Shown: piece after piece, positions 6,749 to 60,320 of the stretch | How the letters are laid out: each line of letters begins with the position of its first letter | How positions within the stretch are numbered: the stretch's first letter is position 1 | Source of the DNA: Heterodontus francisci | Lineage: Eukaryota | DNA length: 64,000 nt | Reading direction: 5' to 3' | NCBI RefSeq assembly: GCF_036365525.1 | Contig: NC_090398.1 | Location: 23,800,936-23,864,935, forward strand | Translations under genes and position numbers: made by a program | Notes under the pieces: model-generated | The model's input: only the letters and a program-made list of their open reading frames with translations | Databases searched by the model: none | What the model was told of the DNA's origin: nothing

Positions 6749-7351
6749 TGCCTGGCATCTGTCATAAGAACACCTTTTCTTTATCAGAATGTCTACTTCT
6801 TCTGTTATGCAAGGAGCTCCGGATTTATTTTCCCGACCTTCCCCCTTCAAGAGAACATACATTGACTCTGCCTGAACTATCTCTTCTTTGAAGTTAGCCC
6901 ATTGTTCAGATACTGTTTTTCCTGCCAACATTTGACTCCAATTTATTAGCGCCCACTCCCTTCTTTCCCCGATGAAATTGGCTTTCCACCAATAAATTAT
7001 TCTTTTTCTATTAGAAGAAGAGTGGACTGGGCTGTATTCAGGACATGGCTCTAACAGTGCGGCTGATCAGCTCCAATATCATACATACAGCAGGGAGGGA
7101 ATTTACAGTGTAAGAACGATGGTCCAGGGGAGAAACTCCAGGAAATGCCTTGAATGGGGTCAGAAGACAGGGGATGGTCCCATGATTAAATTTGGGTGGG
7201 TTAACCTGCATTAAGAGAAAAAACTGCTACATTTCAATCAACCCAAGTGAAAATGCGGAAGTCTTGGGCAGATGGACTTGCGCTGTGCAGGAAAAACTCC
7301 AGACTAAGTGCACAGCCACTTGAGCTGAGTGTTCGGTGAGATGGGAGAGTG

Positions 7352-10532: not shown

Positions 10533-10848
10533 GTCGTGTGGTGGGAAAAAGGCATTGAAGTGGATGATCAGCCATGATCGTATTGAATTGCGGAGCAGGC
10601 GCAATGAGCTGAATGGCCGATCCCTGCTCCTATGACAGAATGATGAGAACGGTCACAGCTGGAAGTAAACAGGGATTGTAGACTGAGGAACAACAGCAGG
10701 TGAACCAGCACAGGAATGTGAAGCACCAGCCAGAGATAACCCTTCCCATTCAAAGAGCTTCCATAGATCGACTGGGGAGAAAGGAAAGAGAAAGTCCCAT
10801 TTACTCTGAGAAACACTGGTCCTGTAGACAGTACACAAAGCTAATGAG
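10533..10848 (+). other. Candidate non-coding (5'UTR) exon; paralogous copy at ~18563-18792
   Basis: Strong acceptor cttctgccctgcag| and donor GAG|gtgagg; no long ORF; includes a CR1 3' tail fragment (~10545-10633). Confidence 0.4.
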
Positions 10849-18250: not shown

Positions 18251-21200
18251 GGTCTGGTGATGAAAGGTTGGTCAGTGTCATACACTGCAGCATTAGCAAA
18301 GCAGGAACTCGGCATTGTGTAATAAGCAGTGAGTGATTGGGGGAGGGAATAGCTGGCAGTTAATGCAGCAAACGTTGGGCAACACTGATGGTAATTTAGA
18401 GAAGTGGAGTTTGTTGGGAACCGAGTGATACTTTCAGCATTGTACCAGGACAGGAAGGGCTTTCCGCTGAGTAAATAAAAGGCTGACAGTGCTGTGGTAG
18501 GCACCTAAGTTTCTACTTCACACCGTGAATATTTGTCACATCTACTGTTCTGCCATTATTAGATCTCCTGGTGAATGACGGAGTGATGAGAAAGGTCCAC
18601 AGCTGGAAGTAAACAGGGATTGTAGACTGAAGAATAACAGCAGGTGAAACAGCACAGGATTGTGAGAGCACCAACCAGAGAGAACCCTTCCCATTCAAAG
18701 AGCTGTCATAGATCGACTGGGGAGAAAGGTAAGAGAAAGTCCCATTTACTCTGATAAATACTGGTCCTGTAGACAGTCCACAAAGCTCACAAGTTAAGGC
18801 AGGACATAGTGAGGATGAGACTAGCAGAGTCTGAACACTGAGCACAATTACCTAACATGAAGGCCATGCGATGGAATGTAAAGTGAGATAAGATAAAGTG
18901 AGATAAAGTGAATCCTGTGTGCATTGTAGTGTAAAGGGATTTGGTCTGAGAAGCGAGTCCAGTCTGGGACAGAGCCCAGTAGATGGACATCTACCTGTTC
19001 ATTAGGCTGGGCTGAACTCTCTCCAACTCCAATTCAGATCTGAATATTGAAATGGCTTTGATCGAGTGATAAATCATATGGGAGACTGAACTGAGAAACT
19101 AATTACAGTCAGTGAACACAACGCAGCGATTGATTACTTTGACTAGTCAACAGCTCCACTATTGTATTATGCGGCTACCAGGATGGTGTAAAGTGACTCG
19201 ATGGACCTTACCCTTTCTCTATCTGCCAATTCCTCTGTTCCTCTGCCGTCTCTTCTCTCAGTAAATTGTCCCAGGCCACTCAACCTATCTGCAGAGCTGT
19301 AGTTACTTTCCCCTTTCTGCCAAAATGCCTTCTTGCAGAAATCAAAATAGGCACTATTCTAGCTGTGGCCATGGCACTGCATTTTAGTTAAAATTTTGTT
19401 CCCCTGCTGTAGCCGAGGCTGGCAAGTCCACTTTTGCAGCCTATCTCTGGTTACTCTGTGATTATGGGTCTACTCCTTGAACCACTGCACCCCCTGTAGT
19501 GATGGTGCTCTCACACAATAGTGTGAGAGATATTACTGGGATATTAGCCAGTGATAGTGAAGCCATACAGGTCCAAATAAGGGTAGTGTGTGACTTGGAG
19601 ACAATGGTGTTCCAATGGCGTTCCTTCTCGCTGTTAAAGTCACGGAAGAGGGAAATGCTGTCAAAGGAAATGGTGTGTGTGTATACAGAGCTGGGAATAT
19701 CTGCGAAACGGAGTGGTTTGTAACAGAGTGGCAAAGGGAATTTGATGAGAGTGGGAATTCGGTGCAGCAGGATAAGGTGGTGCTCAGAGCTTTAAACCAA
19801 AGGGCAACAGTCAGTATAATTATATCGATTTTTTTAAAGGGATCTTTTTTGAGTGCAATGATGGTACAACTGAAATCTCTTGTCTACCATTTGTGTGCCA
19901 TGTAGGAACTCCAGGAAGTTTCATGTGCCCTGGATAAACCACATGTACAGGAGGTGCTTCCATTTGCTCGAACTCACGCTCAGGGTTTCTGAGCTTGAGG
20001 AGTGGCTGGAGTCCCTCCCAGGGCCGACAGGAGGCTGACAATTTCCTGGTGGGCACCTTCCAGATGATAGTCACCCCGCAACTATCGACAGTTCCAGAGA
20101 ATAGTATGTGGCCATCCCGCAGATTGGAAAGAGGCAGTCAGTACCAGAATCCTGGAGTGTAGCACTTCCAAACCGGCTTTCAGCAATGAATACCAGTGAG
20201 GGTGCCGATGAGCTGCAAGACTGCAGTCTGGAGCACATCCACGACATTTTGAGGCAAAGGAATGCAGAGGGAGCACAGCAAAGTGTAGAAATGCAATGGT
20301 TATAGGGGATGCAATACTCAGGGGAATGGACGTGTGTTTCTGCAGCTTCCAACGTGAGTCTCGCATGGCGTGTTGCCTCTCTGGTGGCAAGATAAAGGAC
20401 ATCACTGGGAGGGTGTAGAGCATTTTGAGGGGGAAGGAGGATAAGCCAGTAGTCGTGCCCCATGTGGGAACTAATGACTTGGGAAGGAAGAGGGTTGAGG
20501 TCCTGCAGTCAATTTCAGGAGCTAGGAGGAAAGTTAAGTAGCAAGACCTCCATGGTAGTAATCTCTGGATTACTCCCAATGCCACGTGTTAGTGAGTGTT
20601 TCCTAACCTCGCTCCTGAAAGGTCTGGCTCACATTTTTAGGCTGTGTCCACTTGTCCTAGATTCCCCAACCAGTGGAAATTGTGCGTGTCTCTCTCTCTA
20701 TCTCTCTCTCTCCCCCCCCTATCAGTTCCCTTAATATCATGAAAACCTTGATGCAATCAATGCTTAATCTTCTAAATTCCAGAGAATACAATCCTAGTTT
20801 GGATAATCTCTCCTCAAAATTTAACTCTTGAAGTGCAGCCATTCTGGTAAATCCACGCTATGATCTATGATGTGTGGAATTGAACAGTTACTGCAGGCTG
20901 GAGAAATGGTGCAGGAGAGAGTTTCAGATTCCAGGGGCATTGGCACCAGCTCTGGGCAGGATAGACCTGCACATAATGGACACTTTGCACCTGAATAGAG
21001 CTGGGGCCAATGTCCTCGCAGGCAGTTTAACTAGTACAGTGGGAGAGGGTTTAGACTATTTGGGCAGCGGAGTGCGCACCAGGATGAAATGTTCCTGAGA
21101 GGAGAGAAGGTGCACAGAGGACTCAGAGAGGCAAATAGCACCAGCGTAAAGAACAGTGAAGAAATAGGAGGGATCGCACAGGAGCTGAACGTGAAGCAAT

Positions 21201-23793: not shown

Positions 23794-24640
23794 TAATAAA
23801 TGAATGTCGGTACAGATCTGTTGAAGACAAATCCTATTTGACTACCTTGTTTGAATTTTTTGTTGAAGGAGTGGGGGGGATTGATGAGGAAAGTGCGGTC
23901 GATATGATGCTCATAGACTATTTAAAAGCGCCTGACAAAGTGCCACAGAATCGGTTTGCTAGCTAAATGAAAGCCCATGGGAAAAAAGGGACAACTGGAT
24001 ATAAAGCGGGCTAAGGGACAGTAAACAGAGAGTTGTGGTAAATGGTTATTTTTCAGACTGGAGTAAAGTATACAGTGGTATTCCCCAGGGTTGGTATTAG
24101 GACTACTACACTTTTGGATGTATATTAATGACCTGGACTTGAGTGCACAGGGCATAATTTCAACGTTTGAAACTCAGAAATAGTAGTAAAAGTGAGGAGG
24201 ACAATGCTAGGCTTCTGGTGGATATAGACATGGCAGATGAAATTTAATGCAGAAAAGCGTGGAGTGATAAATTTTGGCGGGAAGACTAACGAGAGGTGAT
24301 ATACACATGGTACAATTTAAACAGGAGTGTGGAAACGGAGAAATCTGGGGTGTCCGTACACAAATCTTTGGTTGCCAGTCAAGTTGAGAATGCTGATGAA
24401 AAAATGTATATGTGATCCTTCATTTCATTAATAGATGACTCGAAGCCGTTTATGCTAAACCTCAATAAAACACTGGCTAGGACTCTGCTGGAATACTGTG
24501 TTCAATTCTGGGCACAAGATAGGAAGGATGTCAGGACCTTGGAGTGGGTGTGCAAGAGGCCTACTGGAGTACCAGGGCTGAGGGACTTCATACTCTGCTG
24601 TAACCTAGAATATAATGTTTTGCAGATAACCATAACTGAT

Positions 24641-25043
24641 ATGGGGAATCCCTCAAGTAAACAACGTTATCTTCAAGGCCCTGCTGCAAGGGAAGGTGAT
24701 CAGGACACAGGAACTGGTACCAGTGAACAAAGTCAGATTCAACACCCTGCTACAAGGGAAGGTGATCAGGACACAGGAACCAGTATCAGTGAACAAAGTC
24801 AGATTCAACACCCTGCTACAAGGGAAGGTGATCAGGATACAGGAACCAGTATCAGTGAACAAAGTCAGATTCAACACCCTGCTACAAGGGAAGGTGATCA
24901 GGACACAGGAACCGGTACCAATACCAATGGACAAAGTCAGATTCAACATCCTGCTGCAAGGGAAGGTGATCAGGACACAGGAACCAGCAGAAGGGAAGCG
25001 ACAATATTAACTGACAATGCACCAAGCTTTGACCAAAAAACAG
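24641..25043 (+). CDS. NLR coding exon 1: MGNPSSK N-myristoylation motif plus 22-aa repeat linker
   Basis: Acceptor tgttttgcag ends 24625; ATG 24641; donor ACAG|gttcgt (phase 1) matches the phase-1 start of the next exon. Lies in ORF 24452-25051. Confidence 0.72.
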
Positions 25044-28000
25044 GTTCGTAGAATGACTGTCATACAGTTAGAAATATGAAACTTTTGTTAATAGCTGTAT
25101 GTACCACATGTTCGGGGTTCTGTTCTCTGCCCCTGTATTATAGTTAAGGTTTTTGTTTAGACATAAGTGTGAATGGCGAAGAAATGGCTTTTCATGCATT
25201 CAGTGGGTGTTGCCCTCTGAATGTACACCCAATCACATGGCCACAAAGTAAGTCTCAAAAGTGACCATCTCTTCCATTTAAATAAAATGAATGATTTGTG
25301 AGCATCACTTGCACTGCTCAATGGCAGTGTGCTGAATGGAGGGTGTCAGCGTACTGAATGGAGGGTGTCAGCGTACTGAATGGAGGGTGTCAGCATACTG
25401 AATGGAGGGTGTCAGCGTGCTGAATGGGGGGGTGTCAGCGTGCTGAATGGGGGGGTGTCAGCGTGCTGAATGGGGGGGTGTCAGCGTGCTGAATGGAGGG
25501 TGTCAGCATACTGAATGGAGGGTGTCAGCATGCTGAATGAGGGGGTGTCAGCGTGCTGAATGGGGGGGTGTCAGCGTGCTGAATGGGGGGGCGTCAGCGT
25601 GCTGAATGGGGGGGTGTCAGCGTGCTGAATGGGGGTTGTCAGCGTGCTGAATGGGGGGGTGTCAGCATGCTGAATGGGGGGGTGTCAGCGTGCTGAATGG
25701 GGGGGTGTCAGCGTGCTGAATGGGGGGGTGTCAGCGTTTTTTAAATTCATTCATGGGATGTGGGCATCGCTGGCTGGACCACCATTTATTGCCCATCCCT
25801 AATTGCCTTCGAGAAGGTGGTGGTGAGCTGCCTTCTTGAACCGCTGCAGTCCATTTGGGGTAGGTGCACCCACCGTGCTGTTAGGAAGGGAGTTGAGAAT
25901 TTTGACCCAGTAACAGTGAATGACTGGTGATATAGTTCCAAGTCAGGATGGTGTGTGACTTGGATGGGAACTTGCAGGTGGTGGTATTCCCATGCATTTG
26001 CTGCCCTTGTCCTTCTGGTTGGTAGAGGTCGCGGGTTTGGAAGGTGCTGTCTAAGGAGTCTTGGTGCATTGCTGCAGTACATCTTGTAGATGGTACACAC
26101 TGCTGCCACTGTGCATCGGTGGTGGAGGGAGTGAATGTTTGTAGATGGGGTGCCAATCAAGCAGGCTGCTTTGTCCTGGATGGTGTTGAGCTTCTTGAGT
26201 GTTGTTGGAGCTGCACCCATCCAGGCAAGTGGAGAGTATTCCATCACACTCCTGACTTGTGCCTTGTAGATGGTGGACAGGCTTTGGGGAGTCAGGAGGT
26301 GGGTTACTCGCTGCAGGATTCCTAGCCTCTGACCTGTTCTTGTTGCCACGGTATTTATGTGGCTACTCCAGTTCACTTTCTGGTCAATGGTAACCCCGAG
26401 GATGTTGATAATGTGCTGAATGGAGGGTGTCAGCGTGCTAAATGGGGGGAGTCAATTGTACTGATGCTGAAGGCAAAGCTGCTGCTTGAAAAGTGGAGGA
26501 GCACTTTGGTGGAAGGTTGGGGGCAATGGCTGGCAGAGCAAATCCCACAGGGGCTGTCCAGATTTCGGACACGGCTTTTGAGGTTTTGCAAGAGCAGCTC
26601 TCCAGGATTTGGGACATCTCCTATCCATCAGGTGACAGGAACCTCTCCAGGCATGCTGCGAGTGATCAGTGGTGGCAGAATGTGTCAGTGCCAGAAATAT
26701 AAGCCCAGACCATAGCTGCATTTCAGGAAGAACTTCAATTACCTCACAAGGTCACAGAATACAAACCTGACACTCATTTATAGTTAAGCCCCTCGGTTTA
26801 GCCTGGTATTAACTGTTAACCTTCCCTCGCCAATTACCAGAACTCTGCTCGATTCACTGCAAATTCCTATATATATTCGGCAGTCCAGCAGCCGGAACAT
26901 CTTAATAAGGGGAATGCATTTTCTGCTAAACGATGAAGCCAACATGGCACAGCAGTAGGTTGTATAGATTCATACAATTTATAACCCTAACGTGTTGCCA
27001 TGGTTTAAAAGCATTTTTCTCATTGATAATTCCTATCGCAATTCCTTATGAACAGAAAATCACATTCATGCTATTCAGTCCTCCCAACACTGATGGTGCT
27101 GTAGTGAACATTCACACATGTCCTCCTGCCATTCTCGCCTCTTTCAAAAAACTCAGTGAGAACCCATTCCAGTCCGCCTGCTGAAGTATGAGTAAGACCA
27201 TTGAGATTCATAAGTAATGAATTAAAATTCTTCTTGAAAATGCACACTTGGTGTATACATCATAATTACCACTGCCCTTGTCACACTTTCTTCCCGCTGC
27301 ACATCAGACTTCACAATTCAGACATCAAACTTGGATTCTAATCTCTCGCTCACTGTGACTGGGGTTTTGATGGATAGAGAGAAACTGTTCCCACTCGTGA
27401 AAGGATCGGGAACGCGAGGGCACCGATTTAAAGTATTTGGTAAGAGAACCAAAAGTGACATGAGCAAAACCTTTCACGCAGCGAGCGGTTAAGGTCTGCA
27501 ATGCGCTGCCTGAGAACGTAAGTGGAGGCAGGTTCAACTGAAGCATTCAAAAGGGAATTAGACTGTTATATGAAAAGGAAAAATGTGCAGGGTTACAGGG
27601 AGAAGGAACGGGAATGGAACTGAGTGAATTGCTCTTTTGGAGAGCCGATGTGGACATGATGGGCTGAATGGCCCCCTTCTGCACTGTAACAGTTCTGTGA
27701 TTCTGTGATTATTCATTTAATATTGCGTATTCAGCACAGAAACGGGCCATTCGACTGATAAAGTCCACGTCAGTGCTTCCGCTCGACACAAGCCCCCTCC
27801 CACCGCTTTTCATCTAACCTTACCAGCATACCCTTCTATTCCTTTCTTCCACCTGTGTCTATCTAACTTCCACTTAAATGCATTAATACTATTTACCTCA
27901 ATTATTCCTTGTGGGTGCATTCCACATTCTTACCACTCTCTGGGTAAAGGTGTTGTGTCTGAATTTCCTAATGGGTTTTTTGTAATTATTTTATGGCCTC

Positions 28001-31000
28001 TATTTTTGACCTCACAATTGGAAGCATTTTCTTCACATCTATCCCATCAAAACATTTCATAATCTTAAAGACCTTTATCAACTCACCCCCTGCCCCTCTT
28101 TTTTAAAGAGAAAAGAGCCGCAGGCTGCTCGGTCTTTCCTGTGTCACGCACACTGGAAATGTAATGATACAACAATCATGGACTAAATCTGAAGAGTTAT
28201 GGCAAATGGACTTTGTCTTTAAAAAATGCGCCTTTATTTTTAGAAAAAGTGAACAGTGGCCCAAAATGGCCTCAAAGGACAAATCTTCAAAGCTAAAAGG
28301 TGTCAATGGAACCCACCCTAAGCCTATACTAAAAGATTCAGAATTGAATGTCTTCTTCTGAAACAAAGGAGGTGTGAAGCAGCCACGTCCTGGCTCAGAA
28401 TGCGATCACCACAGTGTGGAAGAGATGGGAACATCTTCTACCAGGAGGTGAGAGGTGACAGTTCTACCTTTGAAAAAACAGCCAGAGAGAGGAAGACTCA
28501 CCCAGGAGAGAAGCAACATCTAACAGGCAGAAAGCACATGCCCTGCTGAAAAATCCAACATCTGCATTATACAGTGGTGAGAGCTTGAAGTAACCCACCA
28601 TCTTCAACAGAACCTTCTATCAAGAGAGAAATCTGCACTCATTTCAGGCTTGCATCCATCTAGAACTTGATTTCCAAGAGAATTCAACAGGTTTATTGTA
28701 ACCATTCCCCTCCCCCGCCACTAAAAGCTGCCTTCCTTTTTCCCTCCTTTATCTGTCTCTTCTTGTGCATGTGAGCAAATGTTGTGAGTGGATGCAGTTG
28801 CAAAAATTTCAGCATAAGGCGTATCGTCTTCCTGATTTTAAAACCTCCAAGAAAACCTGTCCTTGTCTGTTTATTTGAAAAACAAAACACCAAAGGGGCT
28901 AAACTCTAACACAAATACACTTGTTGTGGTCAGATGGGCTGTTGATCAGTGGGAACCACCCATGTCACACCATGTGGCCATAACACCTAATAGTTTTATC
29001 TTCCTAGTTTTGTTATCATCTTTGTGAATCATTTGTATTCACAGATCCAAACTCTACAACTGCTGAGTTCTTGATGAAGTGTGACGATTTCCAGCTGTTC
29101 CAGTTGATAAAATTCTACCAGCACAGACTCGAGCAGGCCATTGAAGAAGGGGTGGACAGAGTCAGCTCATTGTTAACAGGAGAGCGGCATTTCAGTGGAC
29201 AAGAACATCGGGTAAGTGGAGGGGACGCAGTGAGTTTGGGTTATTTAAACAGATCTCAGAATGCTAGAATGTTACAGAAGTGTAATAGACCAAATACGAA
29301 AGAAATGGATAAAGCTGAGAAGGTTGTGAGTCTGAAACGATGATACAAAGAGGTGAAAATGCTCAGTGGATCCATCAGTATCTCTACATAGGACAGGGGA
29401 ATGGCTTGGGTCTATTACACACTATAGCCACGGCACACCAGTGGTGGAGGGAGTGGATATTTAAGCTGATGTATGGGCGGCTGATGAAGTGGATTACTTT
29501 GTTCAGGATGATGTGGCGCTTCTTCACTATTGCTGCTGCAAACATCCAGGCAACTGGACAGTGTTCTATCAAACGCCTGATCAATGTCTTGTACATATTG
29601 GAGAGGCTTTGGGGTGTTGGGGTAAGCCGCAAGCCGCAAAATGCCCAGCGTCTGGCCTCCTCTCGTAACCACGGCTTTTATATGGCTGCGGAAGTTAAGT
29701 TTCTGGTCAATGGTAACCTCCAGGATGTTGATGAGGGGTGGTATCAGTGATGGCAATGCCATTGAATTACAAAAGGGGGCACTAAGACTCCTATTGGAAA
29801 AGACCATTGCCTGGAACTTGTGCAGCACAAATATTAAGTATCAAGGTTGGATATTGTCCAGGTCTTGCTGATGTAGCCTTCATGATCTGAGAATTTGTGA
29901 ATGGAGCTGAACACTGTGTAACCATCAACAAACATCCCCACTTCTGACCTTACGATGGATGGAATGATGAAGCAGCTGAAGATGGCTGCCCTGAGACGCT
30001 ACCTGAAGGAGCTCCTGTAGTGATGTCCTGGGGCTGAGTTGATTGGCTTCTAATAACCACACCAATCTTCCGTTTTCCAAGCACAACTACAACTATTGGA
30101 GAAGTCACAACCTCCCCGAATCCCAGTGACTTACGTTTGTTCACGCTGTCACTCTCCCCCAACCTCTGGAATTTAATTCAATTGTCCATGATGTGACCTT
30201 GGCTGTAATATGTTCTGGAGCTGATTAGTCCTGGTGGAACCCAAATTGAGCATCATTGATCAGCTTAGTACTGAGGAAGTGCGATTTGGCAGCACTGTTG
30301 ATGACTCCTCCATCACTTTCAGAGTAGGCTGATAGCATGATAATTCGCTGGGTTCACTTGTTAATTGTTTATTGATTGTGTTTCATTTTTTTAATTCATT
30401 CTTGGGATGTGGGCATCGCTTTATTGCCCATCCCTAATTGCCCTTGAGAAGGTGGTGATGAGCTGCCTTCTTGAACCATTGCAGTCCATGTGGTGTAGGT
30501 ACACCCACAGTGCTGTTAGGAAGGGAGTTCCATGATTTTGACCCAGCGGCAGTGAAGGAATGGCGATATAGTTCCAAGTCAGGATAGTGTGTGACTTGGA
30601 GGGCAACTTGCAGATGGTGGTGTTCCCATGTATTTGCTGCCCTTGCCTTTGACCTGGTAGAGGTCATGGGTTTGGAAGGTGCTGTCGAAGGAGACTTGGT
30701 GCATTGCTGCAGTGCATCTTGTAGATGGTACAAACTGCTGCCACTTTGCGTTGGGAGTGGAGGGAGTGAATGTTTGTAGATGGGATGCTGATCAAGCGGG
30801 CTGCTTTGACCTGGATGGTATTGAGCTTCTTGAGTGTGATGCTTATATAGGTGTCAGAGAGATGCCGGGCTCTGAGGTTGCAGATTGTGCTGGAATACAA
30901 TTCTGCAAATGGCCCACGTGGATTCCCAGTTATGAGTGCCCAGTGAGCACAGTGTTAGTTCCTCACAGCACAGTGGTCATTCTGCTCAGTGTGAAGACAG

Positions 31001-34000
31001 GACTTGGCTTCAGGAACTGTGCAGCGATCATTACCACCAATAGTGTCATCAGCAGACCAATCTGTGACAGGTAGATTGCTGAGGGTGAGGTCATTCTTTT
31101 GTGTTGGTTCTCTCAATACCTACCGCAAGCCTAGTCTGATATTTCTAAATGCTTCAGATTCAAATTCACAATCTGCGACGGTATGATTTGAACTCTTGTT
31201 TATTACTCCAGCATCATAACCACCATTCTACAGTCGTTGATGTCCAATGTCTGACAGACACTTCACAGAAGCTCAATCAACTTCTTCTGCATTAAAGCTG
31301 CTATTTAAATGTAAGCTGCTGATGAAAGTCCGACTGCTGGATATGTGTGTTTTCAGTGACCAATGTTTCAAAGCGGCAGCAAATGTGTAAAATAATGGGC
31401 ATCAGGCATTTCAGTTACTGGCGGGAGAAGTGATTGGATTTTTCATCACCGTCATTATTGATCAATTCTCCTGACCGATAAATCAACAGTGGTTGTTCCG
31501 ATTAGTCAGCGGTAGTTTCTCAGACCATTTTCTAGCTGCTTCCCTCACTTCAGATTCGCCCAGGGTGGCGCAGTGGTTAGCACCGCAGCCTCACAGCTCC
31601 AGCGACCCGGGTTCGATTCCGGGTACTGCCTGTGTGGAGTTTGCAAGTTCTCCCTGTGTCTGCGTGGGTTTCCTCCGGGTGCTCCGGTTTCCTCCCACAG
31701 GCCAAAAGACTTGCAGGTTGATAGGTAAATTGGCCATTATAAATTGCCCCTAGTATAGGTAGGTGGTAGGGGAATATAGGGACAGGTGGGGATGTGGTAG
31801 GAATATGGGATTAGTGTAGGATTAGTATAAATGGGTCGTTGATGGTCGGCACAGACTCAGTGGGCCAAAGGGCCTGTTTCAGTGCTGTATCTCTAAAACT
31901 AAACGAAAACTAAAAAACTAAGCCCCATCCCCTGCCCTCGAGTTAATAGAGAGCTAATGATGCTCAGTGCAGCTTGTATTTAAGGGCTGGGTTTTTTCCC
32001 CCAATCAGGGGAGTTACTGCTGGACAGGGAGTGAATCCAGAAGGGAATAGTGGAAACTGGTGTTTGTGCTGAACTATGGATTGAGAATAAAACAGTGTGG
32101 ATCGCAGACTGTCTCCTGCTTCCTGATTTGGCAAATGGACATCTGACCACCAGAACCATACAACTGATTTCCATTTCGTTTTTGTCAAATTTATTCCCCG
32201 TTATTGACTGCATGAAGATCTGAAATTGATAGATTTTTTTTTGCTAGCCAAGGGTGTTAAGGGATGTGGACCCAAGGCAGGTGGATGAAGTTCGGATACG
32301 GAGCCACTCAGATCTAATTGAAAGGCAGAATCGGCTCTAGGGGCTGAATGGCCTACGACTGCCCCCATGTTCCCAAGATGTTTACAGAATATTCAACCGA
32401 CGTTCAGAATGGATCAGTACCAGCTCAGTGACTCCTTTCTGTGCTGAAAAGAACTGGGATATCCCCATCCTTTCCTTCTCGTTCTCGTTCTCAGCGTCTG
32501 TCTTTCATTCTGCTCCTCAATGTGTTCATTATTATTCCTCACAGAAAATTATTGAGCTCGTGGAGAAGGGAAACCGGGCGGACAGTTCCAAACTTCTCCT
32601 AAATCTGGTGATGGAGAAGGGCTCTCGGGTCCGAAGGGTGATGTGGGAATCCTTTGTGAAAATGCGTCACGGGTTACCAAAGTTGGACGAAATACTGAAA
32701 GAAATACAGGAACTCGGTACGGTAAAATCACACACTGAATTCAACTTCAGATTCAAACACTGCAGAATTTACTGTAATATTGCACAAATCTGATTTCATG
32801 AAAGCTGACTGATAGATTAATTTTAAACAGGTTCTGATCCACTTGCTTCCATGAACACAGCGCGAGGTTTATCCGAGGTACCCGGTCACCTGAAGGGTGA
32901 GTGATGAAATAAAGATTTCTAATTGTTTATTTCACTTCTGAGAATCAGAATATTTGACTTCAGCCATTTACTTAGAAATTGTCACAATCTGGGAATCAGA
33001 CATTCAAAGGCTGGAGCAACAGGATTGAACATCGTTTAGATTTGTCTTCAATCCTCAACTATTCTGGAACATAAGAACATAAACAGGAGCAGGAGTAGAC
33101 CATCCAGCCCGTCGAGCCTGCTCTGCCATTCAGAATGAACACGGCTGTTCTTGGGCTTCAACTCTACTTTCTGCCTGCGCTCCATATCCCTTGATTCCCG
33201 AGGAGACCAAAAATCTGTCTATCCAAGCCTGAAACCTATTCAACAATGGACCATCCACTGCCCTCTGGGGTAAAGAATTCAAAAGAATCACAACCCTTTG
33301 AGTGAAGAAATTTCACCTCATTTTCAATCCGCAATGATGGTCCCCTTGTTACTTAGACTGTGCCCCCATGTTTTAGATTCTCCAGTGCAAACAACCTCTC
33401 AGTGTCTACCCTGTGAAGCCCCTTCAGAATCTGGTAAGTTTCAATAAGATCACATCTCATTCTTCTAAACTCCAGACAACATAATCCCTATTTGCTCAGC
33501 CTCTTAACATAGCACAACCCTCTCATCCCAGGGACCAATCCAGTGAACCTTCGCTGTACTGCCTCCAATGCAAGTATGTCCTTCCTTTTAAACATAGAGA
33601 CCACAGCTGCAGACAGTATTCCAGGTGTTGTTTCACCAAAGTCCGATTCAATTGTAGCTAGACTTCTTTATTCCTATACTCCAATCCCCTTGCAATAAAG
33701 GCCAAAATGCCATTTGCCTTCCTAATTGCTTGCTGTACCGACATGCTAACTTTCTGTGTTCGCCTTTTAACCAATAATCTCTTCTGAGTACAATAAGGTT
33801 ACAATACATACAACATCTGACACATGCTGTAAGTATGCAAATGTTGCATGAGTTCACAAAATCCAGCTGCTTATTGCTATCATTTTTGAAATCCCATACA
33901 CATGCAGGATCCTGATACACTGTGAAACCCCATACACATCTGGCAGGATCCTGATATTCTGTGAAACACCATACACACCTGGCAGGATCCTGATACGCTG

Positions 34001-37000
34001 TGAAACCCCATATACACCTGGCAGGATCCTGATACACTGTGAAACCCCATACACACCTGGCAGGATCCTGATACACTGTGATATCCCATACATGTCTGGC
34101 AGGATCCTGATACACTGTGAAACCCCATACACACCTGGCAGGATCCTGATACACTGTGAAACCCCATACACACCTGGCAGGATCCTGAAACACTGTGAAA
34201 CCCCATATACACCTGGCAGGATCCTGATACACTGTGAAACCCCATACACACCTGGCAGGATCCCGATACACTGTGAAACCCCATACACACCTGGCAGGAT
34301 CCTGATATTCTGTGAAACCCCATACACACCTGGCAGGATCCTGATATTCTGTGAAACCCCATACACACCTGGCAGGATCCCGATACACTGTGAAACCCCA
34401 TATACACCTGGCAGGATCCTGATATTCTGTGAAACCCCATACACACCTGGCAGGATCCTGATATTCTGTGAAACCCCATACACACCTGGCAGGCTCCCGA
34501 TACACTGTGAAACCCCATATACACCTGGCAGGATCCTGATATTCTGTGAAACCCCATACACACCTGGCAGGATCCTGATGCACTGTGAAACCCCATATAC
34601 ACCTGGCAGGATCCTGATACACTGTGAAACCCCATATACACCTGGCAGGATCCTGATATTCTGTGAAACCCCATACACACCTGGCAGGATCCTGATATTC
34701 TGTGAAACCCCATACACACCTGGCAGGATCCTGATACACTGTGAAAGCCCATACACACCTGGCAGGATCCTGATACACTGTAAAATCCCATTCACACCTG
34801 GCAGGATCCCGATACACTGTGAAACCCCATACACACCTGGCAGGATCCCGATACACTGTGAAACCCCATATACACCTGGCAGGTTTCCGATACACTGTGA
34901 AACCCCATACGCACCTGGCAGGATCCTGATACACTGTGAAACCCCATACACACCTGGCAGGATCCTGATGCACTGTGAAACCCCATACACACCTGGCAGG
35001 ATCCTGATACACTGTGAAATCCCATATACACCTGGCAGGATCCTGATACACTGTGAAACCCCATACACACCTGGCAGGATCCTGATACACTGTGAAATCC
35101 CATATACACCTGGCAGGATCCTGATACACTGTGAATCCCCATACACACCTGGCAGGATCCTGATACACTGTGAAATCCCATATACACCTGGCAGGATCCT
35201 GATACACTGTGAAATCCCATACACACCTGGCAGGATCCTGATACACTGTGAAATCCCATATACACCTGGCAGGATCCTGATACACTGTGAAATCCCATAC
35301 ACACCTGGCAGGATCCTGATACACTGTGAAATCCCATACATACCTGGCAGGATCCTGATACACTGTGAAATCCCATATGCACCTGGCAGGATCCTGATAC
35401 ACTGTGAAATCCCATATACACCTGGCAGGATCCTGATACACTGTGAAACCCCATACACACCTGGCAGGATCCTGATACACTGTGAAACCCTATACACACC
35501 TGGCAGGATCCTGATACACTGTGAAACCCCATACACACCTGGCAGGATCCTGATACACTGTGAAATCGCATACACACCTGGCAGGATCCTGATACACTGT
35601 GAAACACCATATGCACCTGGCAGGACCCTGATACACTGTGAAACCCCATACACACCTGACAGGATCCTGATACACTGTGAAACCCCATACACACCTGACA
35701 GGATCCTGATACACTGTGAAACCCCAGACGCACCTGGCAGGATCCCCAGACAATGTGAAACACCATACATAAGTGGCACAATCCCAATACATGTGAAACC
35801 CCATCCATAGCTGGCAGGAGACTGAAACTGTGATACTCCCAAATTACCTGTCAGGATCCCAACACAAGTCTCCTGTGTGCTGCGCGTAAATCTGGTCTCA
35901 GCAGTAAAGTGCTGTGCCTTGAGCCAGGTTTTTCTGTTACCTGTGCCCCTAAATAATATCTGCCACCAGAAACGGTAGGGAATGGCAGGTTGCAAAATGT
36001 GAAACATTAAAGTGTTATCATTTCACGGCACAGAATGAGACGTCAGCAACAGTTTGATCTGATCTGTGAATATGTACAGATGATTAATCCGAGGAGGAAT
36101 GTGTTGAAAAGACAATCTTCAGGTTGACTGGGAAATTATTAGCGAGCTTCCTAATGGCAGTGAAAATGAAAATCTAGTTCTATTCCAAGAATAGCCCTCT
36201 GGTTCAGGAGACCTTTTAGACCCAATGTCATGACTAACAGAAGCATATTTGTCATTTCTCAAACCTGAATTATAAAAACACTTTCAATGAATGGGTGAAA
36301 TTGCTCAAATTTCTGAAACACAATACGACAGGAAAAATTTGTCCAAAGTAAACCTGTTCTTGTTGGGGAAGTGAATCCACCCATCATTTCTCTCGGTGTA
36401 TCGACAGAAACACCTTAAATTTTCCCGTGACCACCACTGCACTGTTCCTATCGTGTCCTTCCCTCGTAACTGTCCCCCACTCTATAACCCTTTGTGTGAA
36501 AAAGTTACCCTGATATAACTTCTTTCTACTGACTTCCAACTTTCTCTGTTTTTAATTATTTTGGGAATTCTGAGCCTATTCTCTGCACTATTTCTGTGAA
36601 TTCCATTAAAATATTTCAAGACCTATGACTCTTTCCCAAGAAAAATACATCTTTCCTTAAATCTAAACTCCGAGTACCTTAAATTATCTTTGATTCCAAC
36701 CTGTACCCTTCAGAATGGTAGTAAACTTTACCTGTGATCAGGTGACTATAGCAGGGAAGGTTATACCCAAGATATAAACTGCCCGAATTGTGAAACAATA
36801 GCAATTTAACTCCTGCCTAATAACAGACTGTCACTCCCGGTGCACCTTGTACCCCAGGACACCTGCCTGAGTCCTGAACCAATAGCAATTTCAGTCCTGT
36901 CTCTTCACAGCCTGTCCCTTTCTCAGTCCACACACTACTCCCGAAAACTTGTCCGAAACCTGAAACAACAGCAATTTTATCTCCTGTCCTGTCTCTCTGT

Positions 37001-40000
37001 GCACAGGATTCCCCAGATAATCTACTCAAGTCCTGATACAGTAACAGTGGATATTCTGTTCGGAGTGGGAGAGGTTAAGGAAGGGAATTCCAGAGCTCAA
37101 GGGCTCAGAAGCTGAAGTCACGGCTGCCAGTGGTGAAGCAGAAAAATTTGAGGAGACACAAGAGGCCAGAACTGGAGGAGGGCAGAGATTTCTGAGGGTG
37201 TAGGGTTGGAGGAGTTACAGAGATAGGGAGCGGACTGGGCCATGGAGATGTTTGAATGCAAGAATGAGAATTTTTAAAGCAATTTTGCTGCACCGGGGAC
37301 TAGTTTTGTTCAGCAAGGACAGACATGATGGGTGAATGGGACTTGGTACGAGTTTTGGAAAATAAATCAAAATCTCCATGTTCAGGAATTATTGGAATTT
37401 AATGAAGATATATAACTTTCTTGGTCATTGCTCAATTTCAAGCAAGGGTCCAGTAACTGAGTTTTAATTTCTAAACAAATCTCTATTGAAGCTGTGAATT
37501 AAATCTTACTGATTAGTAAAACGGTTTTGAAAAATTGTTTTTATATCAATACAACTAACATTGAAAACCACTTTCTGTCTATTCTAATTGAAGATGTTCA
37601 ACAGAAACACAAGGAAACACTCCGGGTACAAACTGAAACACTGAGAGTGAACACTATCCTAATAAAGGAGAAGGTTAAGATTTTCCAGCTGGTTGATCGA
37701 TACGCTGAGCTAACGGTCATTTCTACTGTTCGAGATCGGTCACTTGTAGAACATGAACTGCTGGCAAGAGGCCGAGACCATGAAGTGTGGAGAGAGAAAC
37801 ATCGCCGGAGAGAACTGAAAAAAATCCAAATTTGTCAATTATTCCCGAGCAGTTTTTCCCAGAGAAAATCCAAATCTGGGAGTTCAGCAGCAGTGAGTGG
37901 AGTCCCGGGGATTGGAAAAACAACAATGGTACAAAAGATTGTTTATGACTGGGCCACTGGGAAAATATACCCAAACTTTCAATTTGTTTTCAGTTTTAAA
38001 TTCCGGGATTTGAACGCAATTAACTGTAGAATAAACCTGAGGAATCTGGTACTGGATCAGTATCCTTACTTTGGGAATGTCCTGGGAGAGCTCTGGAAAA
38101 ATCCAGAGGGATTGCTTTTTATATTTGATGGTTTGGATGAATTCAAGGACACGATCGATTTTGCTGACAATCGGAGAAATACAGAACCTCAGTACATGTG
38201 CACAGATCCCGAATGCTGGTGTGAAGTGTCTGACATTGTGTACAGTTTAATACAGCACAAGCTGCTCCCCGGATGTTCAGTGTTAGTGACCAGTCGTCCC
38301 ACTGCATTACATTTATTGGAAAAGGCTGAGATCAGTGTCTGGGCTGAAATCCTGGGATTTGGTGGTGATGAACGGAAGGAATATTTCAACAAGTTTTTTG
38401 AAGATCAGACGGTGGCAGCAGCTGTTTTCAAACACGTGGAGGAGAACGAGATCCTGTACACCATGTGCTACAACCCTTCCTACTGTTGCATCCTCTGTCT
38501 GTCACTGGGTCCCTTCTTTACACAAAGAGACAGGAAACAGCAGCAAGTTCCCAAGACCATCACCCAGTTATATTCCTACTATATTTACAACATTCTGAAA
38601 AACCATAGCCAAGAGATTGAAAACCCCCGTGATGTGTTACTGAAGATCGGTGAGATGGCCTTCACAGGAGTCTCCAGGAAGAAGATTGTGTTTAGAAATG
38701 GAGATTTGATCGAGTATAATCTGCAACCTTCCCAGTTCCTGTCTGGATTCCTGATGGAACTTTTGGAGAGAGATGATTCTGTCCAGAGTGTGGTTTACAC
38801 ATTCCCGCACCTCACCATCCAAGAGTTTGTAGCCGCACTCGCACAATTCCTGACTCCAAATCCCGGGGACATCCGGAAGCTCCTCAGTGAAGCTCACAGC
38901 GAGGAAGATGGGAGATTTGAGATATTTCTGCGTTTTGTTGCTGGTCTCTCCTCCCCACAGGCAGCGTGGCCCCTGGAAGGATTGCTGGGTCCATTTCCTC
39001 ATCAGACAACCTGCCAAGTGATTGACTGGGTGAAGGAGAAGGTTGAAGGACAGATTGGAAACACAAAGAGTAAAACTGATAAAAGGAACCTCATGAACAG
39101 TTTGCATTACCTGTTTGAGTCTCAGAATAAAGCACTGGCTTGGGCCACAATGGAGCCTGTGGAAACACTTACCTTCGGAGATCCTCACTTCCAGAAAGCA
39201 TTGCAACTGACTACAATTGACTGTCTGGTCCTATGTCGTGCCATGGGACTCTGCAATGTAATAAAGCACCTTGATCTGCAGGAGTGCACCATTCAGTGTG
39301 AAGGACTCCAGCGGCTGGAACCCATCCTGCACAAATGCCAGGAGCTGAGGTAACTGTTCATTTGTCTCTAAATATGGTGGGGGTGGGGGGGCAATTGTAC
39401 AACAGTCACGGATTGTTGCTCAGTAACAAAGTGAAACGAATGGTTCAGTTAAACCAGATTGAACACAATATGACAAATATTATGAGGATCGGTTAGTAAT
39501 TCCCAAAGGACTGGAGCATCTAAGATAGATCCTTATGAACAAGCAGAGATTTTACAGCCTTTATCAGATTAGTAAATACAGGTCACTGAAACAATCTGAT
39601 AATTTAATTGCAATAAATTGTATAATTGCTGTTTTCCTCACTGCCTAAGAATTTTCTCATGAAGAGGCCCCTTCTCTCTGTTACTAACACGTCTTCTTCT
39701 TCTTTGGCCTCCTTGTCTCGAGAGACAATGGGTAAGCACCTGGAGGTGGTCAGTGGTTTGTGAAGCAGCGCCTGGAGTGGCTATAAAGGTCAATTCTAGA
39801 GTGACAGACTCTTCCACAGGCGCTGCGGGTAAAATTGGTTGTCGGCGCTGTTACACAGTTGGCTCTCCCCTTGCGCTTCTGCCAACAGCTAACTAGCACG
39901 TAGGCCAACGCTGACTGCAGCAGTCCATGTGTTGGAGCCTCCCGCCCTCTTCCCGAGGTACCATCGCAAGCGGCAGTCGCTGGATTGCCAAAGTGCGTAG

Positions 40001-43000: not shown

Positions 43001-43929
43001 GAGACTCGGCTGAGGGACATTTAAAAGTTTCACACAGACACCACTTTATTCAATAAATACATTTACCGATAGTCCTGGAACATATGGGGAATTGGACAGA
43101 GTGAGATTCATTGTCAGTGACATGAAAATCTGCTCATTCATTTTCTGAAGTTGCCTCAGTGTTTCGTGTAATGTCCGAGAATTATAACTTCCATCAGATC
43201 TGTGATTTTATTCAGTGGTCTCTCACTCCCTGTCTGTTTATGTTTAGACTGAGTCACAATAAACTGGGGGATTCAGGAGTGAAAATACTGTCTGCAGCTC
43301 TGAGCAATCCCAACTGTAAAATACAGGAACTGAAGTAAGCAATAGAAATTGTGTTTCTCATAAATGGATGTCTGACACTGCACATTATTCTTAGCACCAA
43401 AAAGTAGTTATTCATCATGCACAGTGTTTATTACATCAGTAATTGTATGATTAATGAACTCTGGGAATTTATCCTAATTTCTGTTATTTTCCTGTCCGAT
43501 TCCCCAGTCTGTGGGATACCAGTCTTACAGATTCTTGTGCTGAGGATCTCGCCAATGCACTCGGAACAAACAGGTCACTAACAGTTCTGTCTCTGGGGTT
43601 TAACTCCTTCACAGACCAATCTGTCCCTGCTCTCCGCCAGCTCATACTGACCTGCAGGAGTCTGAAGGAGATCAGGTGAGCGTTTGTGTTAATGTAGAAT
43701 GTAGTGCAAACAAAATGCATATAAATAGGATTCAGTCACTTCTCTGGGTAATATTTGTTTATAATTATAATTGAAGTACTAATGATAGAATCCTTTTATG
43801 TGCAGTGTTGTGGCAATCTGCTTATTTCCTGTTTGTTTCAGGCTGTTGAAGAGTCAGTTCAGTTCGATCGGAGAGAATCAGCTGAAGTCACTGCAGGAAT
43901 CCAAAAGTGGACTGAAAGTGATTGTGTAA
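24641..43929 (+). CDS. Spliced NLR gene (CARD-like + NACHT + LRR; NLRP3/NLRC3-like class), 8 coding exons, 968 aa: join(24641-25043,29045-29211,32545-32716,32831-32896,37594-39349,43248-43334,43508-43675,43842-43929)
   Basis: Exon lengths 403+167+172+66+1756+87+168+88=2907 nt (969 codons incl. TAA); every intron GT..AG; intron phases 1,0,1,1,2,2,2 join without stops. Orthology to a named mammalian NLR cannot be assigned from sequence alone. Confidence 0.85.
24679..24988 (+). repeat. Coding tandem repeat, 66-bp unit (PATREGDQDTGTSISEQSQIQH), about 4.6 copies, one 72-bp unit
   Basis: Units start 24679, 24745, 24811, 24877, 24949; all length changes are multiples of 3. Confidence 0.95.
25328..26451. 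repeat. 21-23-bp minisatellite (gtgctgaatggggggtgtcagc) split by a LINE insertion
   Basis: About 18 units at 25328-25737 and two more at ~26412-26451. Confidence 0.92.
25738..26411 (-). mobile_element. 5'-truncated CR1/L2-group LINE (family B)
   Basis: ORF 25786-26376 WSSHINTV...IYKAQVRSVMEYSPLAW; RT C-terminus plus 3'UTR. Confidence 0.9.
27350..28141. mobile_element. Two CR1 3' ends tail-to-tail (+ ~27350-27710; - ~27730-28141)
   Basis: gaatggccccttct...ttctgtgattctgtga tail and reverse-oriented cagcacagaaacgggccattcg tail. Confidence 0.75.
28142..28985 (+). mobile_element. Solo LTR
   Basis: TGTCAC...ATAACA termini; flanks cctg/ccta (4-bp TSD, 1 mismatch); ends 60 bp upstream of NLR exon 2. 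Confidence 0.65.
29045..29211 (+). CDS. NLR coding exon 2: first half of CARD-like domain (DPNSTTAEFLMKCDDFQLFQLIKFYQHRLEQAIEEGVDRVSSLLTGERHFSGQEHR)
   Basis: Acceptor attcacag|, donor CGG|gtaagt (phase 0); amphipathic helical pattern. Confidence 0.88.
29400..31140 (-). mobile_element. Old family-B LINE with a younger family-B copy (~30385-30840) nested in it
   Basis: Decayed RT ORFs 29384-29828; younger 3' end ttaattcattcttgggatgtgggcatcgc... at ~30390. Confidence 0.75.
31563..31921 (+). mobile_element. HE1-like tRNA-derived V-SINE
   Basis: Pol III A box tggcgcagtgg, B box ggttcgattcc, V-domain gcgtgggtttcctccgggtgctccggtttcctccca, CR1-like tail gggcctgtttcagtgctgtatctc(taaaac)n. Confidence 0.92.
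32545..32716 (+). CDS. NLR coding exon 3: second half of CARD-like domain (KIIELVEKGNRADSSKLLLNLVMEKGSRVRRVMWESFVKMRHGLPKLDEILKEIQEL)
   Basis: Acceptor ttcctcacag|, donor G|gtacgg (phase 1); 'R...LL..V..KG' pattern typical of CARD helices. Confidence 0.88.
32831..32896 (+). CDS. NLR coding exon 4: 66-nt linker (GSDPLASMNTARGLSEVPGHLK)
   Basis: Acceptor ttttaaacag|, donor AAGG|gtgagt; symmetric phase 1-1 and open. Confidence 0.8.
33067..33765 (-). mobile_element. CR1 3' fragment
   Basis: Tail gaacataagaacata...ggagcaggagtag; RT C-terminal remnants. Confidence 0.85.
33886..35860. repeat. Intronic minisatellite, 39-bp unit (cctggcaggatcctgatacactgtgaaaccccatacaca), about 49 copies
   Basis: Directly visible array; 13-codon periodicity explains long repetitive ORFs on both strands. 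Confidence 0.98.
37594..39349 (+). CDS. NLR coding exon 5: NACHT NTPase, winged helix, HD2 and first LRRs
   Basis: ORF 37527-39353 contains Walker A GVPGIGKT, Walker B LLFIFDGLDE, sensor-1 VLVTSR and WHD motif FPHLTIQEFVAA; acceptor attgaag|, donor AG|gtaact. Confidence 0.96.
39692..39892 (-). mobile_element. Short RTE 3' fragment
   Basis: (tct)n tail then tttggcctccttgtctcgagagacaatggg..., same family as the 11192 and 40750 copies. Confidence 0.9.
40750..42225 (+). mobile_element. 5'-truncated RTE-clade LINE with uninterrupted 456-aa RT ORF
   Basis: ORF 40803-42173: AFIDLTKAF, LAPTLF, LLFADD, YLGS, RRLRWLGHV; short 3'UTR ending ggccaaagaaga. Confidence 0.95.
42322..42422. repeat. (CT)n-rich microsatellite
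   Basis: Visible polypyrimidine tract. Confidence 0.9.
43248..43334 (+). CDS. NLR LRR exon, 87 nt (LSHNKLGDSGVKILSAALSNPNCKIQEL)
   Basis: Ribonuclease-inhibitor-type LRR; tgtttag| ... AA|gtaagc, phase 2-2. Confidence 0.93.
43508..43675 (+). CDS. NLR LRR exon, 168 nt (LWDTSLTDSCAEDLANALGTNRSLTVLSLGFNSFTDQSVPALRQLILTCRSLKEI)
   Basis: Two 28-aa RI-type LRRs; tccccag| ... AG|gtgagc, phase 2-2. Confidence 0.93.
43842..43929 (+). CDS. NLR terminal coding exon (LLKSQFSSIGENQLKSLQESKSGLKVIV*)
   Basis: Acceptor gtttgtttcag|; TAA at 43927-43929; capping LRR-like pattern. Confidence 0.88.
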
Positions 43930-59352: not shown

Positions 59353-59884
59353 AGGAGGCTCAAAGGGCCGAATGGCCTACTCTTGCTCCTATTTCTTATG
59401 TTCTTATGAGTTACGCAAACCCTATGGCCCTTGATTGCTTGTCTGCTGCTTTCTCTTACTAGGGGTGATTTAACATAGTATAGACCAAGGAAGAAACCTT
59501 GAACCTTCATTGCCTTTCTCCCTCTGTCCACAGTACTTAATGCCAAACCACTCGAACAGCTCCCGCCCATCTGTGCACAAACGTGCAATTAAATTATGTA
59601 GTACCAGAAATAAGGACTAATTGTTATTCAATCCATTTATATTATTAAGATTTAATCATGGCTAAGCACTTCTTTCTAACCTGTAACATCATTTCTAAGC
59701 CCTCTTAGGGAACCACTGAAGACGATCAAATAAAGTAGCAGAGCAGAGGTTTGACCCTCTTCTGAAATGAGCGGGATTTTAACTCAGGGACACATCCATA
59801 GAAAATAAGAAAACTATGCTATCTAAGCGAACATGCTGGAATGACAATATGTGTTCATTTTCAATAGGAGAAGCGTTATAGAAA

Positions 59885-60320
59885 ATGGGAAATTCAGGGA
59901 GTAAAAAGTTTGAGTTACATGGCGTGCAAGTTACCACCAATAAAAGTCCCCCAGTGATCAGATGCAGTCGCCCTGTCGGTTTGGAAATTGGCAGCGAGAA
60001 CAGACCGAGTCCACAGGCAAGTAATATTCCAATCCAAGGAAGCTCCGATGAAAAAGACAGGACACAACGACGTGGTCTTATTTCAGAAAGCACGTTAAGC
60101 GTCGAACAATATGGTAGAAGGGAGGAGAAATATGAAGTGAGTTACCCGGCAAGAGATATCCCATGTGGAACTGACGGATCAACGACAAATGCGCCAGAGG
60201 AAAATATGCAAACCCTCCCAGCGAGCCCGCATCGGCCCACGGGAGGCGATGCATTTGCAAGTTGTCAAGTTAAAACAAGTGAAAACTTGGAAGGAACCGA
60301 CATCCTTAAAAACTTACCAG
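59885..60320 (+). CDS. Probable first coding exon of a second (paralogous NLR?) gene, MGNSGSKK myristoylation motif plus S/T/P/E-rich linker
   Basis: Acceptor ttttcaatag ends 59867; ATG in good context (aaaATGG); 436 nt open to CCAG|gtaggg (phase 1). Same layout as exon 24641-25043. Downstream exons not identified in the window. Confidence 0.6.

Follow-up and report, generated by a model that had tools for sequence, protein, structure and literature searches.

Two NLR Genes with Met-Gly Starts

The stretch of DNA analyzed here, referred to as the window, comprises 64,000 nucleotides of the 6.0-Gb genome of Heterodontus francisci (G000:C28:23800936-23864935). It contains an NLR gene with its ATG at 24641 (gene 1) and the beginning of another with its ATG at 59885 (gene 2). 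Table 1 shows their features. Both genes have the architecture of animal NLRs, a NACHT domain with Walker A and B motifs, a winged helix, HD2 and C-terminal LRRs, and in both of them PF05729, PF17779, PF17776 and PF13516 were above cut-off in the Pfam scan. Both ATGs are preceded by a purine at −3 and followed by a G at +4.

Table 1. Features of gene 1 and gene 2 (positions of the window unless a locus is named)
Feature	Position	Strand	Evidence or remark
Gene 1 non-coding leader exon	18563..18728	+	3′ end from X1 contig; 5′ acceptor inferred from sequence
Gene 1 first coding exon: 134-residue acidic linker of 22-residue repeats, predicted disordered	24626..25043	+	
Gene 1 start M-G-N-P-S-S-K, candidate N-myristoylation signal	24641..24661	+	Sequence, spliced leader frames
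Gene 1 CARD-like domain, exon one	29045..29211	+	Junction in contigs; predicted fold
Gene 1 CARD-like domain, exon two (32545-32716), and linker exon (32831-32896)	32545..32896	+	
Gene 1 open exon for NACHT, winged helix and HD2, with Walker A GVPGIGKT	37594..39349	+	Pfam
Gene 1 LRR exons (three) and stop	43248..43928	+	
Gene 2 first coding exon	59868..60320	+	One copy in genome search
Gene 2 start M-G-N-S-G-S-K-K-F, strong candidate N-myristoylation signal	59885..59911	+	
Gene 2 CARD-like and NACHT exons	L032, about 1067-1234, 1482-1653 and 6391-8145		Beyond the window

The first coding exon of gene 1 has its acceptor 15 nt upstream of the ATG and holds 403 coding nt before a phase-1 GT donor. 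A sequence-only reading of the window had proposed that this MGNPSSK exon splices in phase onto a CARD-NACHT-LRR gene, and its start is annotated and frame-checked. The public H. francisci model whose NACHT exon is identical to that of gene 1 begins with MGNPSSK, as do its four isoforms. The junction 25043-29045, which the same reading had marked for confirmation, shows up in the runs X1 and X2, in each as the loose end of a single contig; in the region compared (24596-25075), both contigs continue past 25043 with the 30 bases that open the 29045 exon. X1 and X2 are contig runs from one sample, their RNA nature is the tool's guess, and start site, strand and level cannot be read from them. The runs X4 and X19 showed only loose ends of the M-E-N type described below and do not cover the gene 1 start, which makes them neutral evidence.

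One X1 contig joins the end of the leader exon (18728) to the acceptor at 24626. In this form of the spliced leader there are stops in frame, the last one 26 codons before the ATG, and no in-frame ATG, so that the search for an upstream in-frame start of gene 1 found none. The leader has two uORFs, both out of frame, of 3 and 8 codons. The initiator methionine is thus the first in-frame start of this leader form, and glycine follows directly. Another copy of the leader exon, 91% identical, lies at 10632-10790 of the window, and leader exons of this type are also found upstream of many paralogs whose start exon differs.

Gly2, Asn3, Ser6 and Lys7 of gene 1 are favorable for N-myristoyltransferase (NMT) and Pro4 is unfavorable. 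The linker that follows is built of a 66-bp repeat (4.7 copies), has a net charge of −11 and contains only two basic residues within its first 15. In an AlphaFold2 model of gene 1 based on 42 sequences (mean pLDDT 78.9), residues 1-134 have a pLDDT under 50, and residues 136-247 form a helical bundle with a pLDDT of 82-94 in the whole-protein model. The Atlas feature matches of residues 135-250 are CARD (0.87-0.89, lead level); the model has a TM of 0.66-0.73 to CARD parts, below the Atlas naming bar. NOD2 and NLRP3 ranked top in a fold search with the gene 1 model from residue 264 on, and NLRP3 is the solved structure nearest by sequence. A PYD, the N-terminus of the NLRP subfamily, was absent from the Pfam scan and from the Atlas matches. 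The proposed CARD-NACHT-LRR assignment therefore stands on Pfam for NACHT and LRR; CARD had no Pfam match at E≤0.1 in either gene and comes from the predicted structure, which suggests, at lead level, a CARD-like effector domain. The proposed order of anchor signal, disordered linker, CARD-like domain, NACHT and LRR was borne out by Pfam and the predicted structure. Tandem arrays occupy 7354-10347 (40 bp × 76) and 33887-35859 (39 bp × 51) of the window; the latter lies in an intron of gene 1 and has open frames of more than 600 codons on both strands.

The ATG of gene 2 has its acceptor 17 nt upstream and opens 436 coding nt that end at a phase-1 donor after 60320. In the genomic sequence, an in-frame TAG is located 6 nt upstream of it in the same exon. 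The CARD-like and NACHT exons lie 5-13 kb past the first exon, and the public model P0127, which corresponds to gene 2, joins the first exon to them. Genes 1 and 2 are distant paralogs with NACHT exons 54% identical. Asn3, Ser6 and Lys7 are present in both; beyond the motif no similarity was detected between the first exons (BLASTP E=0.68), in agreement with the claim that they are alike only in motif and layout. That both linkers are of low complexity was upheld for gene 1; the linker of gene 2, unlike that of gene 1, contains no repeat.

The gene 2 start is conserved. The orthologs of catshark and bamboo shark begin MGNSGSKKF and MGNSRSKAF, and six of the eight residues at positions 2-9 are invariant in the three species, compared with 22/136 elsewhere in the exon (p=7e-4; the Mustelus ortholog, whose model starts at an internal Met, was omitted from the count). 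The ortholog protein searches spanned 321-1024 residues and the best 120 rows each, so that long models, and additional orthologs of gene 2, may fall outside this range. Also invariant in the orthologs is the R-C-S-R of residues 26-29, a candidate for palmitoylation. The independent exon at 59885 noted in the sequence-only reading therefore has an annotated start that is conserved across three shark orders.

Distribution of the Met-Gly Start in the Family

In the genome, the CARD-like exon has at least 75 matches and a NACHT segment at least 122. The 10-20 kb upstream of 57 of the 75 CARD-like loci were searched and no MG start was found at any of the 57: ten had starts of the gene 1 exon type (nine M-E-N and one M-A-S), 13 had starts from another exon (MA, MD or MP), and 34 had no resolved start. 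All 12 other genomic copies of the gene 1 exon start have GAG (Glu) at codon 2, giving M-E-N, and three of them also carry an earlier out-of-frame ATG. Among the 120 nearest proteins listed, many of whose models look truncated, most starts are MA or ME; three begin with MG and two fit MGxxxS/T. The sequence-only reading had suggested a family with a common N-terminal anchor, in which paralogs keep Gly2. These counts contradict both points. Matches to an MG-x-x-x-S motif in the upstream DNA were discarded: they were many, arose by chance and lay within repeats.

The enrichment that the same reading had proposed to look for was found in a broader set. From the best 150 of 7642 hits, taken as representatives at 50% identity, 140 start with Met. 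Ser or Thr occupies position 6 in 9/15 MG starts and in 21/125 others (p=6e-4; the rows are partly dependent), and position 6 was the only one from 3 to 12 enriched in MG starts. The nine MGxxxS/T representatives come from sharks, rays, bichir, bowfin and one frog; one of them, P0273, is an internal Met within a longer model. MG starts overall (15/140) are not above the approximately 7% of human proteins that start with MG (p=0.07), about 0.8% of human proteins being predicted to be myristoylated (PMC4200515). The frequency of MGxxxS/T (9/140) exceeds a rough expectation of 1.9% taken from the human figures of the same source (p=0.002; p=0.03 if 3% is assumed). The motif thus recurs in a minority of the family, above what composition predicts.

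N-termini of the gene 1 type are also found in other sharks. The sawshark protein P0071 opens with an identical MGNPSSK, and this sawshark also has a protein of the M-E-N type, P0102. The Mustelus proteins P0203 and P0341 have gene 1-type repeats and start with MGKLLSKSRCK. No further species with such N-termini was found among 12 candidates scored. In the NACHT tree, whose groups follow species, gene 1 did not group with P0071 or P0203, which are putative orthologs at most. The Mustelus models, whose start is MGKLLSKSRCKSK, join the repeat linker to NACHT without CARD-like exons. Among Heterodontus paralogs, the 66-bp linker repeat varies from about one to more than 20 copies, with open frames of up to 512 codons. 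Linker-repeat loci include L009, L013 and L112-L114 (G000:C28, 22.09, 31.95, 26.87, 32.01 and 21.83 Mb), and three have long arrays in which no start was found. About a dozen NACHT-like matches lie on G000:C49, most with the same in-frame TGA.

A Predicted Helix Exon and a Met-Gly Exon in Downstream Paralogs

A subcluster of CARD-less NLR genes lies 0.4-1.9 Mb downstream of the window on the same contig (L152-L157 at G000:C28 24.26-25.70 Mb, L132-L151 and L159-L179). It includes P0225 (MGGGSSKKK), one of the nine MGxxxS/T representatives, and its cluster mate P0342 (MGNCCG), 0.8-1.3 Mb downstream. Four genes, at 24.28, 24.94, 25.30 and 25.50 Mb, have an open 141-nt exon, phase 1 at both ends, whose product shows basic residues after a hydrophobic stretch and is a predicted transmembrane helix; two of them have a signal-peptide-like exon upstream. 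In the genes at 24.70, 25.16 and 25.72 Mb a 116-nt exon is found in which the helix frame is shifted, and its products begin Met-Gly just behind the old helix: MGNCCG, MGGGSSKKKT and MGNYIGWLRT. The genes with the last two starts have a disabled signal-peptide exon. A fourth 116-nt copy, MTNFFSQKTT, has lost Gly2 and has an intact helix exon downstream of it. Neither exon was found upstream of the genes at 24.11, 24.46 and 24.54 Mb.

Codons 2-10 of the four 116-nt copies are unusually variable, with 15/27 variable columns versus 8/85 upstream (p=2e-6). The changes fall 7/8/0 on the three codon positions (p=5e-5), and none of the codons shows synonymous differences alone. The NACHT exons of all seven genes are open and carry Walker A and B; those of the subcluster differ by a few percent only, and the Met-Gly starts are used by public models that have several isoforms. 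In the wider tree the subcluster genes belong to a 23-row clade (SH 100), in which 11/23 rows reach a hydropathy of ≥1.8 over 19 residues before NACHT, compared with 4/125 others. Judged from the deep split of the intact exon types and from this clade, the helix state is probably ancestral. The methionine behind the helix may be old as well, because one intact helix exon, in P0266, shows an internal I-M-G where the Met-Gly starts sit. In a DNA tree of ten downstream genes, the helix type is nested among Met-Gly types, which indicates module exchange and gives no order of events. Nearby copies appear to have swapped a predicted membrane-spanning helix for a putative Met-Gly signal.

Other arrangements were observed in these genes and their relatives. 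The isoform model P0344 (G000:C28:25125331-25125441, L160) skips the Met-Gly exon, uses the remnant signal-peptide exon and starts from an internal Met of it. P0276, P0288, P0307, P0309, P0250, P0290 and P0233 have signal-peptide-like and/or transmembrane-like segments before NACHT. P0276 shows a weak CARD match behind the helix, with no usable Atlas match for residues 470-720, and P0290 has repeated hydrophobic segments. In model P0269, which may be a fusion artifact, NACHT is joined to a hydrophobic segment and to Ig domains of the butyrophilin-like type.

Discussion

The chemistry of NMT distinguishes the candidate signals. A review excludes proline from the X positions of the GXXXS/T consensus (PMC10908362), a rule that gene 1, as the rule is worded there, breaks with Pro4; gene 2 (X residues N-S-G) and its orthologs (N-S-G and N-S-R) pass it. 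None of six MG-x-P starts (MG[NSAQGT]P) appears in the table of 169 labeled MG proteins in the available supplement of PMC4200515, where human MGNSRSR and MGNSASN proteins are among the NMT-inhibitor-responsive or directly identified substrates. Lys7 is a favored residue and forms a stabilizing salt bridge in NMT1 (PMC7048800). The motif at 24641 is therefore the weakest case, and gene 2 and the CARD-less downstream paralogs are stronger ones. Myristoylation is likelier for gene 2 than for gene 1: judged from their sequences, the glycines of gene 2 and of the MGNCCG and MGGGSSKKK paralogs are very probably myristoylated, and for the gene 1 glycine the chances are evenly poised.

The analysis shows where both genes start, how gene 1 is spliced, in which order the domains stand, that the gene 2 start is conserved, the selection patterns and the minority recurrence; we infer the lipid, localization, ligand and output of these proteins, which would come from two intact genes of the expanded shark NLRP-related cluster, as follows. 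From established NMT chemistry, methionine aminopeptidase would remove Met1 and NMT would then acylate Gly2 during translation. A second membrane signal could be provided by basic residues or Cys27 in gene 2 and by Cys4-Cys5, the lysine run or an aromatic helix in the downstream paralogs. The predicted CARD-like/NACHT/LRR sensor would thereby be tethered to the cytosolic face of a membrane through a long, predicted disordered linker. By analogy with the S-palmitoylation of NOD1/2, the tether might allow surveillance of a membrane compartment by the LRR and focus NACHT oligomerization on it, with the CARD-like output at the membrane. We consider this explanation probable.

The main alternative concerns gene 1 and is compatible with the rest of the explanation just given. 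It holds that MGNPSSK is a chance variant of M-E-N-S-S-S-N that is not myristoylated and that true signals are confined to gene 2 and the CARD-less paralogs; we give it a little less than an even chance. GAG and GGG differ by one base, and the other 12 copies of the exon all encode Glu2. With G at +4, the Kozak context favors a second residue that is Gly, Ala, Glu or Asp. Pro4 is disfavored both by the consensus in PMC10908362 and by the available table of PMC4200515. However, Gly2, Pro4 and Lys7 all depart from the M-E-N type and are all common to gene 1 and the sawshark P0071, in a species that also holds the M-E-N type P0102, and the Mustelus repeat-type protein retains Gly2, Ser6 and Lys7. 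A broader version, in which every motif fits a loose pattern by chance, seems very improbable. A few fits are expected, given the human frequencies of PMC4200515 quoted above and at least 122 NACHT matches in the genome, but the enrichment of S/T6, the conservation of gene 2 in three species and the helix-to-Met-Gly exchange each exceed what chance would produce.

The downstream Met-Gly starts could instead be annotation by-products, old internal Met-Gly codons left after a frameshift in decaying genes. The I-M-G of P0266 sits exactly there, two copies differ by several changes that are synonymous in the shifted helix frame, and short ORFs lie ahead of these starts. Nevertheless, the excess of changes is limited to codons 2-10 and spares third positions, the NACHT exons are open, and multi-isoform public models use the starts; we regard this alternative, which in any case leaves gene 2 untouched, as unlikely. 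The glycine might also act as a tripwire, the loss of the lipid exposing a Gly/N-degron or freeing the NLR, and this being sensed. Proteases that clip myristoylated N-termini exist, and a microbial protease clipping acylated N-termini, or NMT blockade, could be the trigger. Diversifying selection on residues 3-10 suits such an arms race, and the Gly/N-degron ligase CRL2-ZYG11B is described in the available literature as acting on an NLRP1 peptide. The start of gene 2 is conserved rather than diversifying, though, and a changed target membrane accounts equally well for the variable second signals. The tripwire, which would itself need myristoylation, is a similarly improbable reading.

In the downstream paralogs, membrane attachment itself is probably the selected trait, since the same exon occurs in two forms, one an intact predicted helix and the other a frameshifted version with a diversifying Met-Gly start. 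The anchor is a swappable N-terminal module and not a hallmark of the family. In a wider proposal, to which we give somewhat better than even chances, cartilaginous fishes would have membrane-tethered NLRs with interchangeable anchors (a signal peptide plus transmembrane helix, or myristate combined with palmitate, a lysine run or an aromatic helix). One cluster of this genome would preserve a helix-to-lipid switch made by a frameshift, with later positive selection on a ten-codon address tag that would decide which membrane each sensor guards.

Vertebrate NLRs are seen as soluble proteins that reach membranes by reversible S-palmitoylation, and N-myristoylation has been shown for plant NLRs. 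If the proposal is correct, a co-translational anchor in NLRs of jawed vertebrates would represent convergence with plants, and some vertebrate NLRs would be membrane-bound from synthesis onward. In the cluster, near-identical NACHT exons come naturally in matched sets, with a helix, with myristate and Cys, with myristate and lysines, or without an anchor; therefore, the effect of membrane position on NLR activation is directly testable. The cluster would also open a first functional approach to the expanded NLRP-related family of sharks, a proposed stand-in for missing NLRPs.

Comparison with Known Systems

In line with the sequence-only reading, a literature search that covered few subscription papers found no report of N-myristoylated or transmembrane vertebrate NLRs, cartilaginous fish included. 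Matches that came up treat, as far as their available text goes, TLR3, GBPs or NLRX1 instead (PMC7157566, PMC12009050, PMC9680067). The public automatic models P0124, P0127, P0225 and P0342 represent the same genes with the same starts. Their automatic name, "NACHT, LRR and PYD domains-containing protein 3-like", points to a PYD, which they lack, and does not mention an anchor.

NOD1/NOD2 and NLRP3 undergo S-palmitoylation, and in these proteins lipid attachment governs membrane recruitment or stability (PMC12433868, PMC10940682), a likeness to the shark genes. The modification there is reversible, post-translational and on internal cysteines, whereas the shark anchor is predicted to be co-translational and N-terminal. 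Expanded NLRs closest to NLRPs have been described in the whale shark (PMC8455134). Whale shark P0137 shares a 201-row group (SH 94) with the present genes in the NACHT tree, and the present genes, whose anatomy matches that family, may belong to the clade of that expansion. The available text of PMC8455134 does not give N-terminal anatomy or contain the word "myristoyl".

A further likeness is to the plant CCG10 coiled-coil NLRs SUMM2 and RPS5. As in the shark genes, an N-terminal MGxxxS/T, often with Cys nearby, is found in part of a subfamily, the motif being present in 65% of the CCG10 subgroup (PMC13043302). The plant proteins have NB-ARC and a coiled coil and a separate origin, whereas the shark genes have NACHT and a CARD-like domain; NACHT, not NB-ARC, passes the Pfam cut-off, and the likeness lies at most in the anchor. 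SUMM2 is myristoylated, and the G2A substitution abolishes its plasma-membrane localization and cell death (PMC13043302); for the plant protein the lipid has been shown, and for the shark NLRs it is predicted from sequence.
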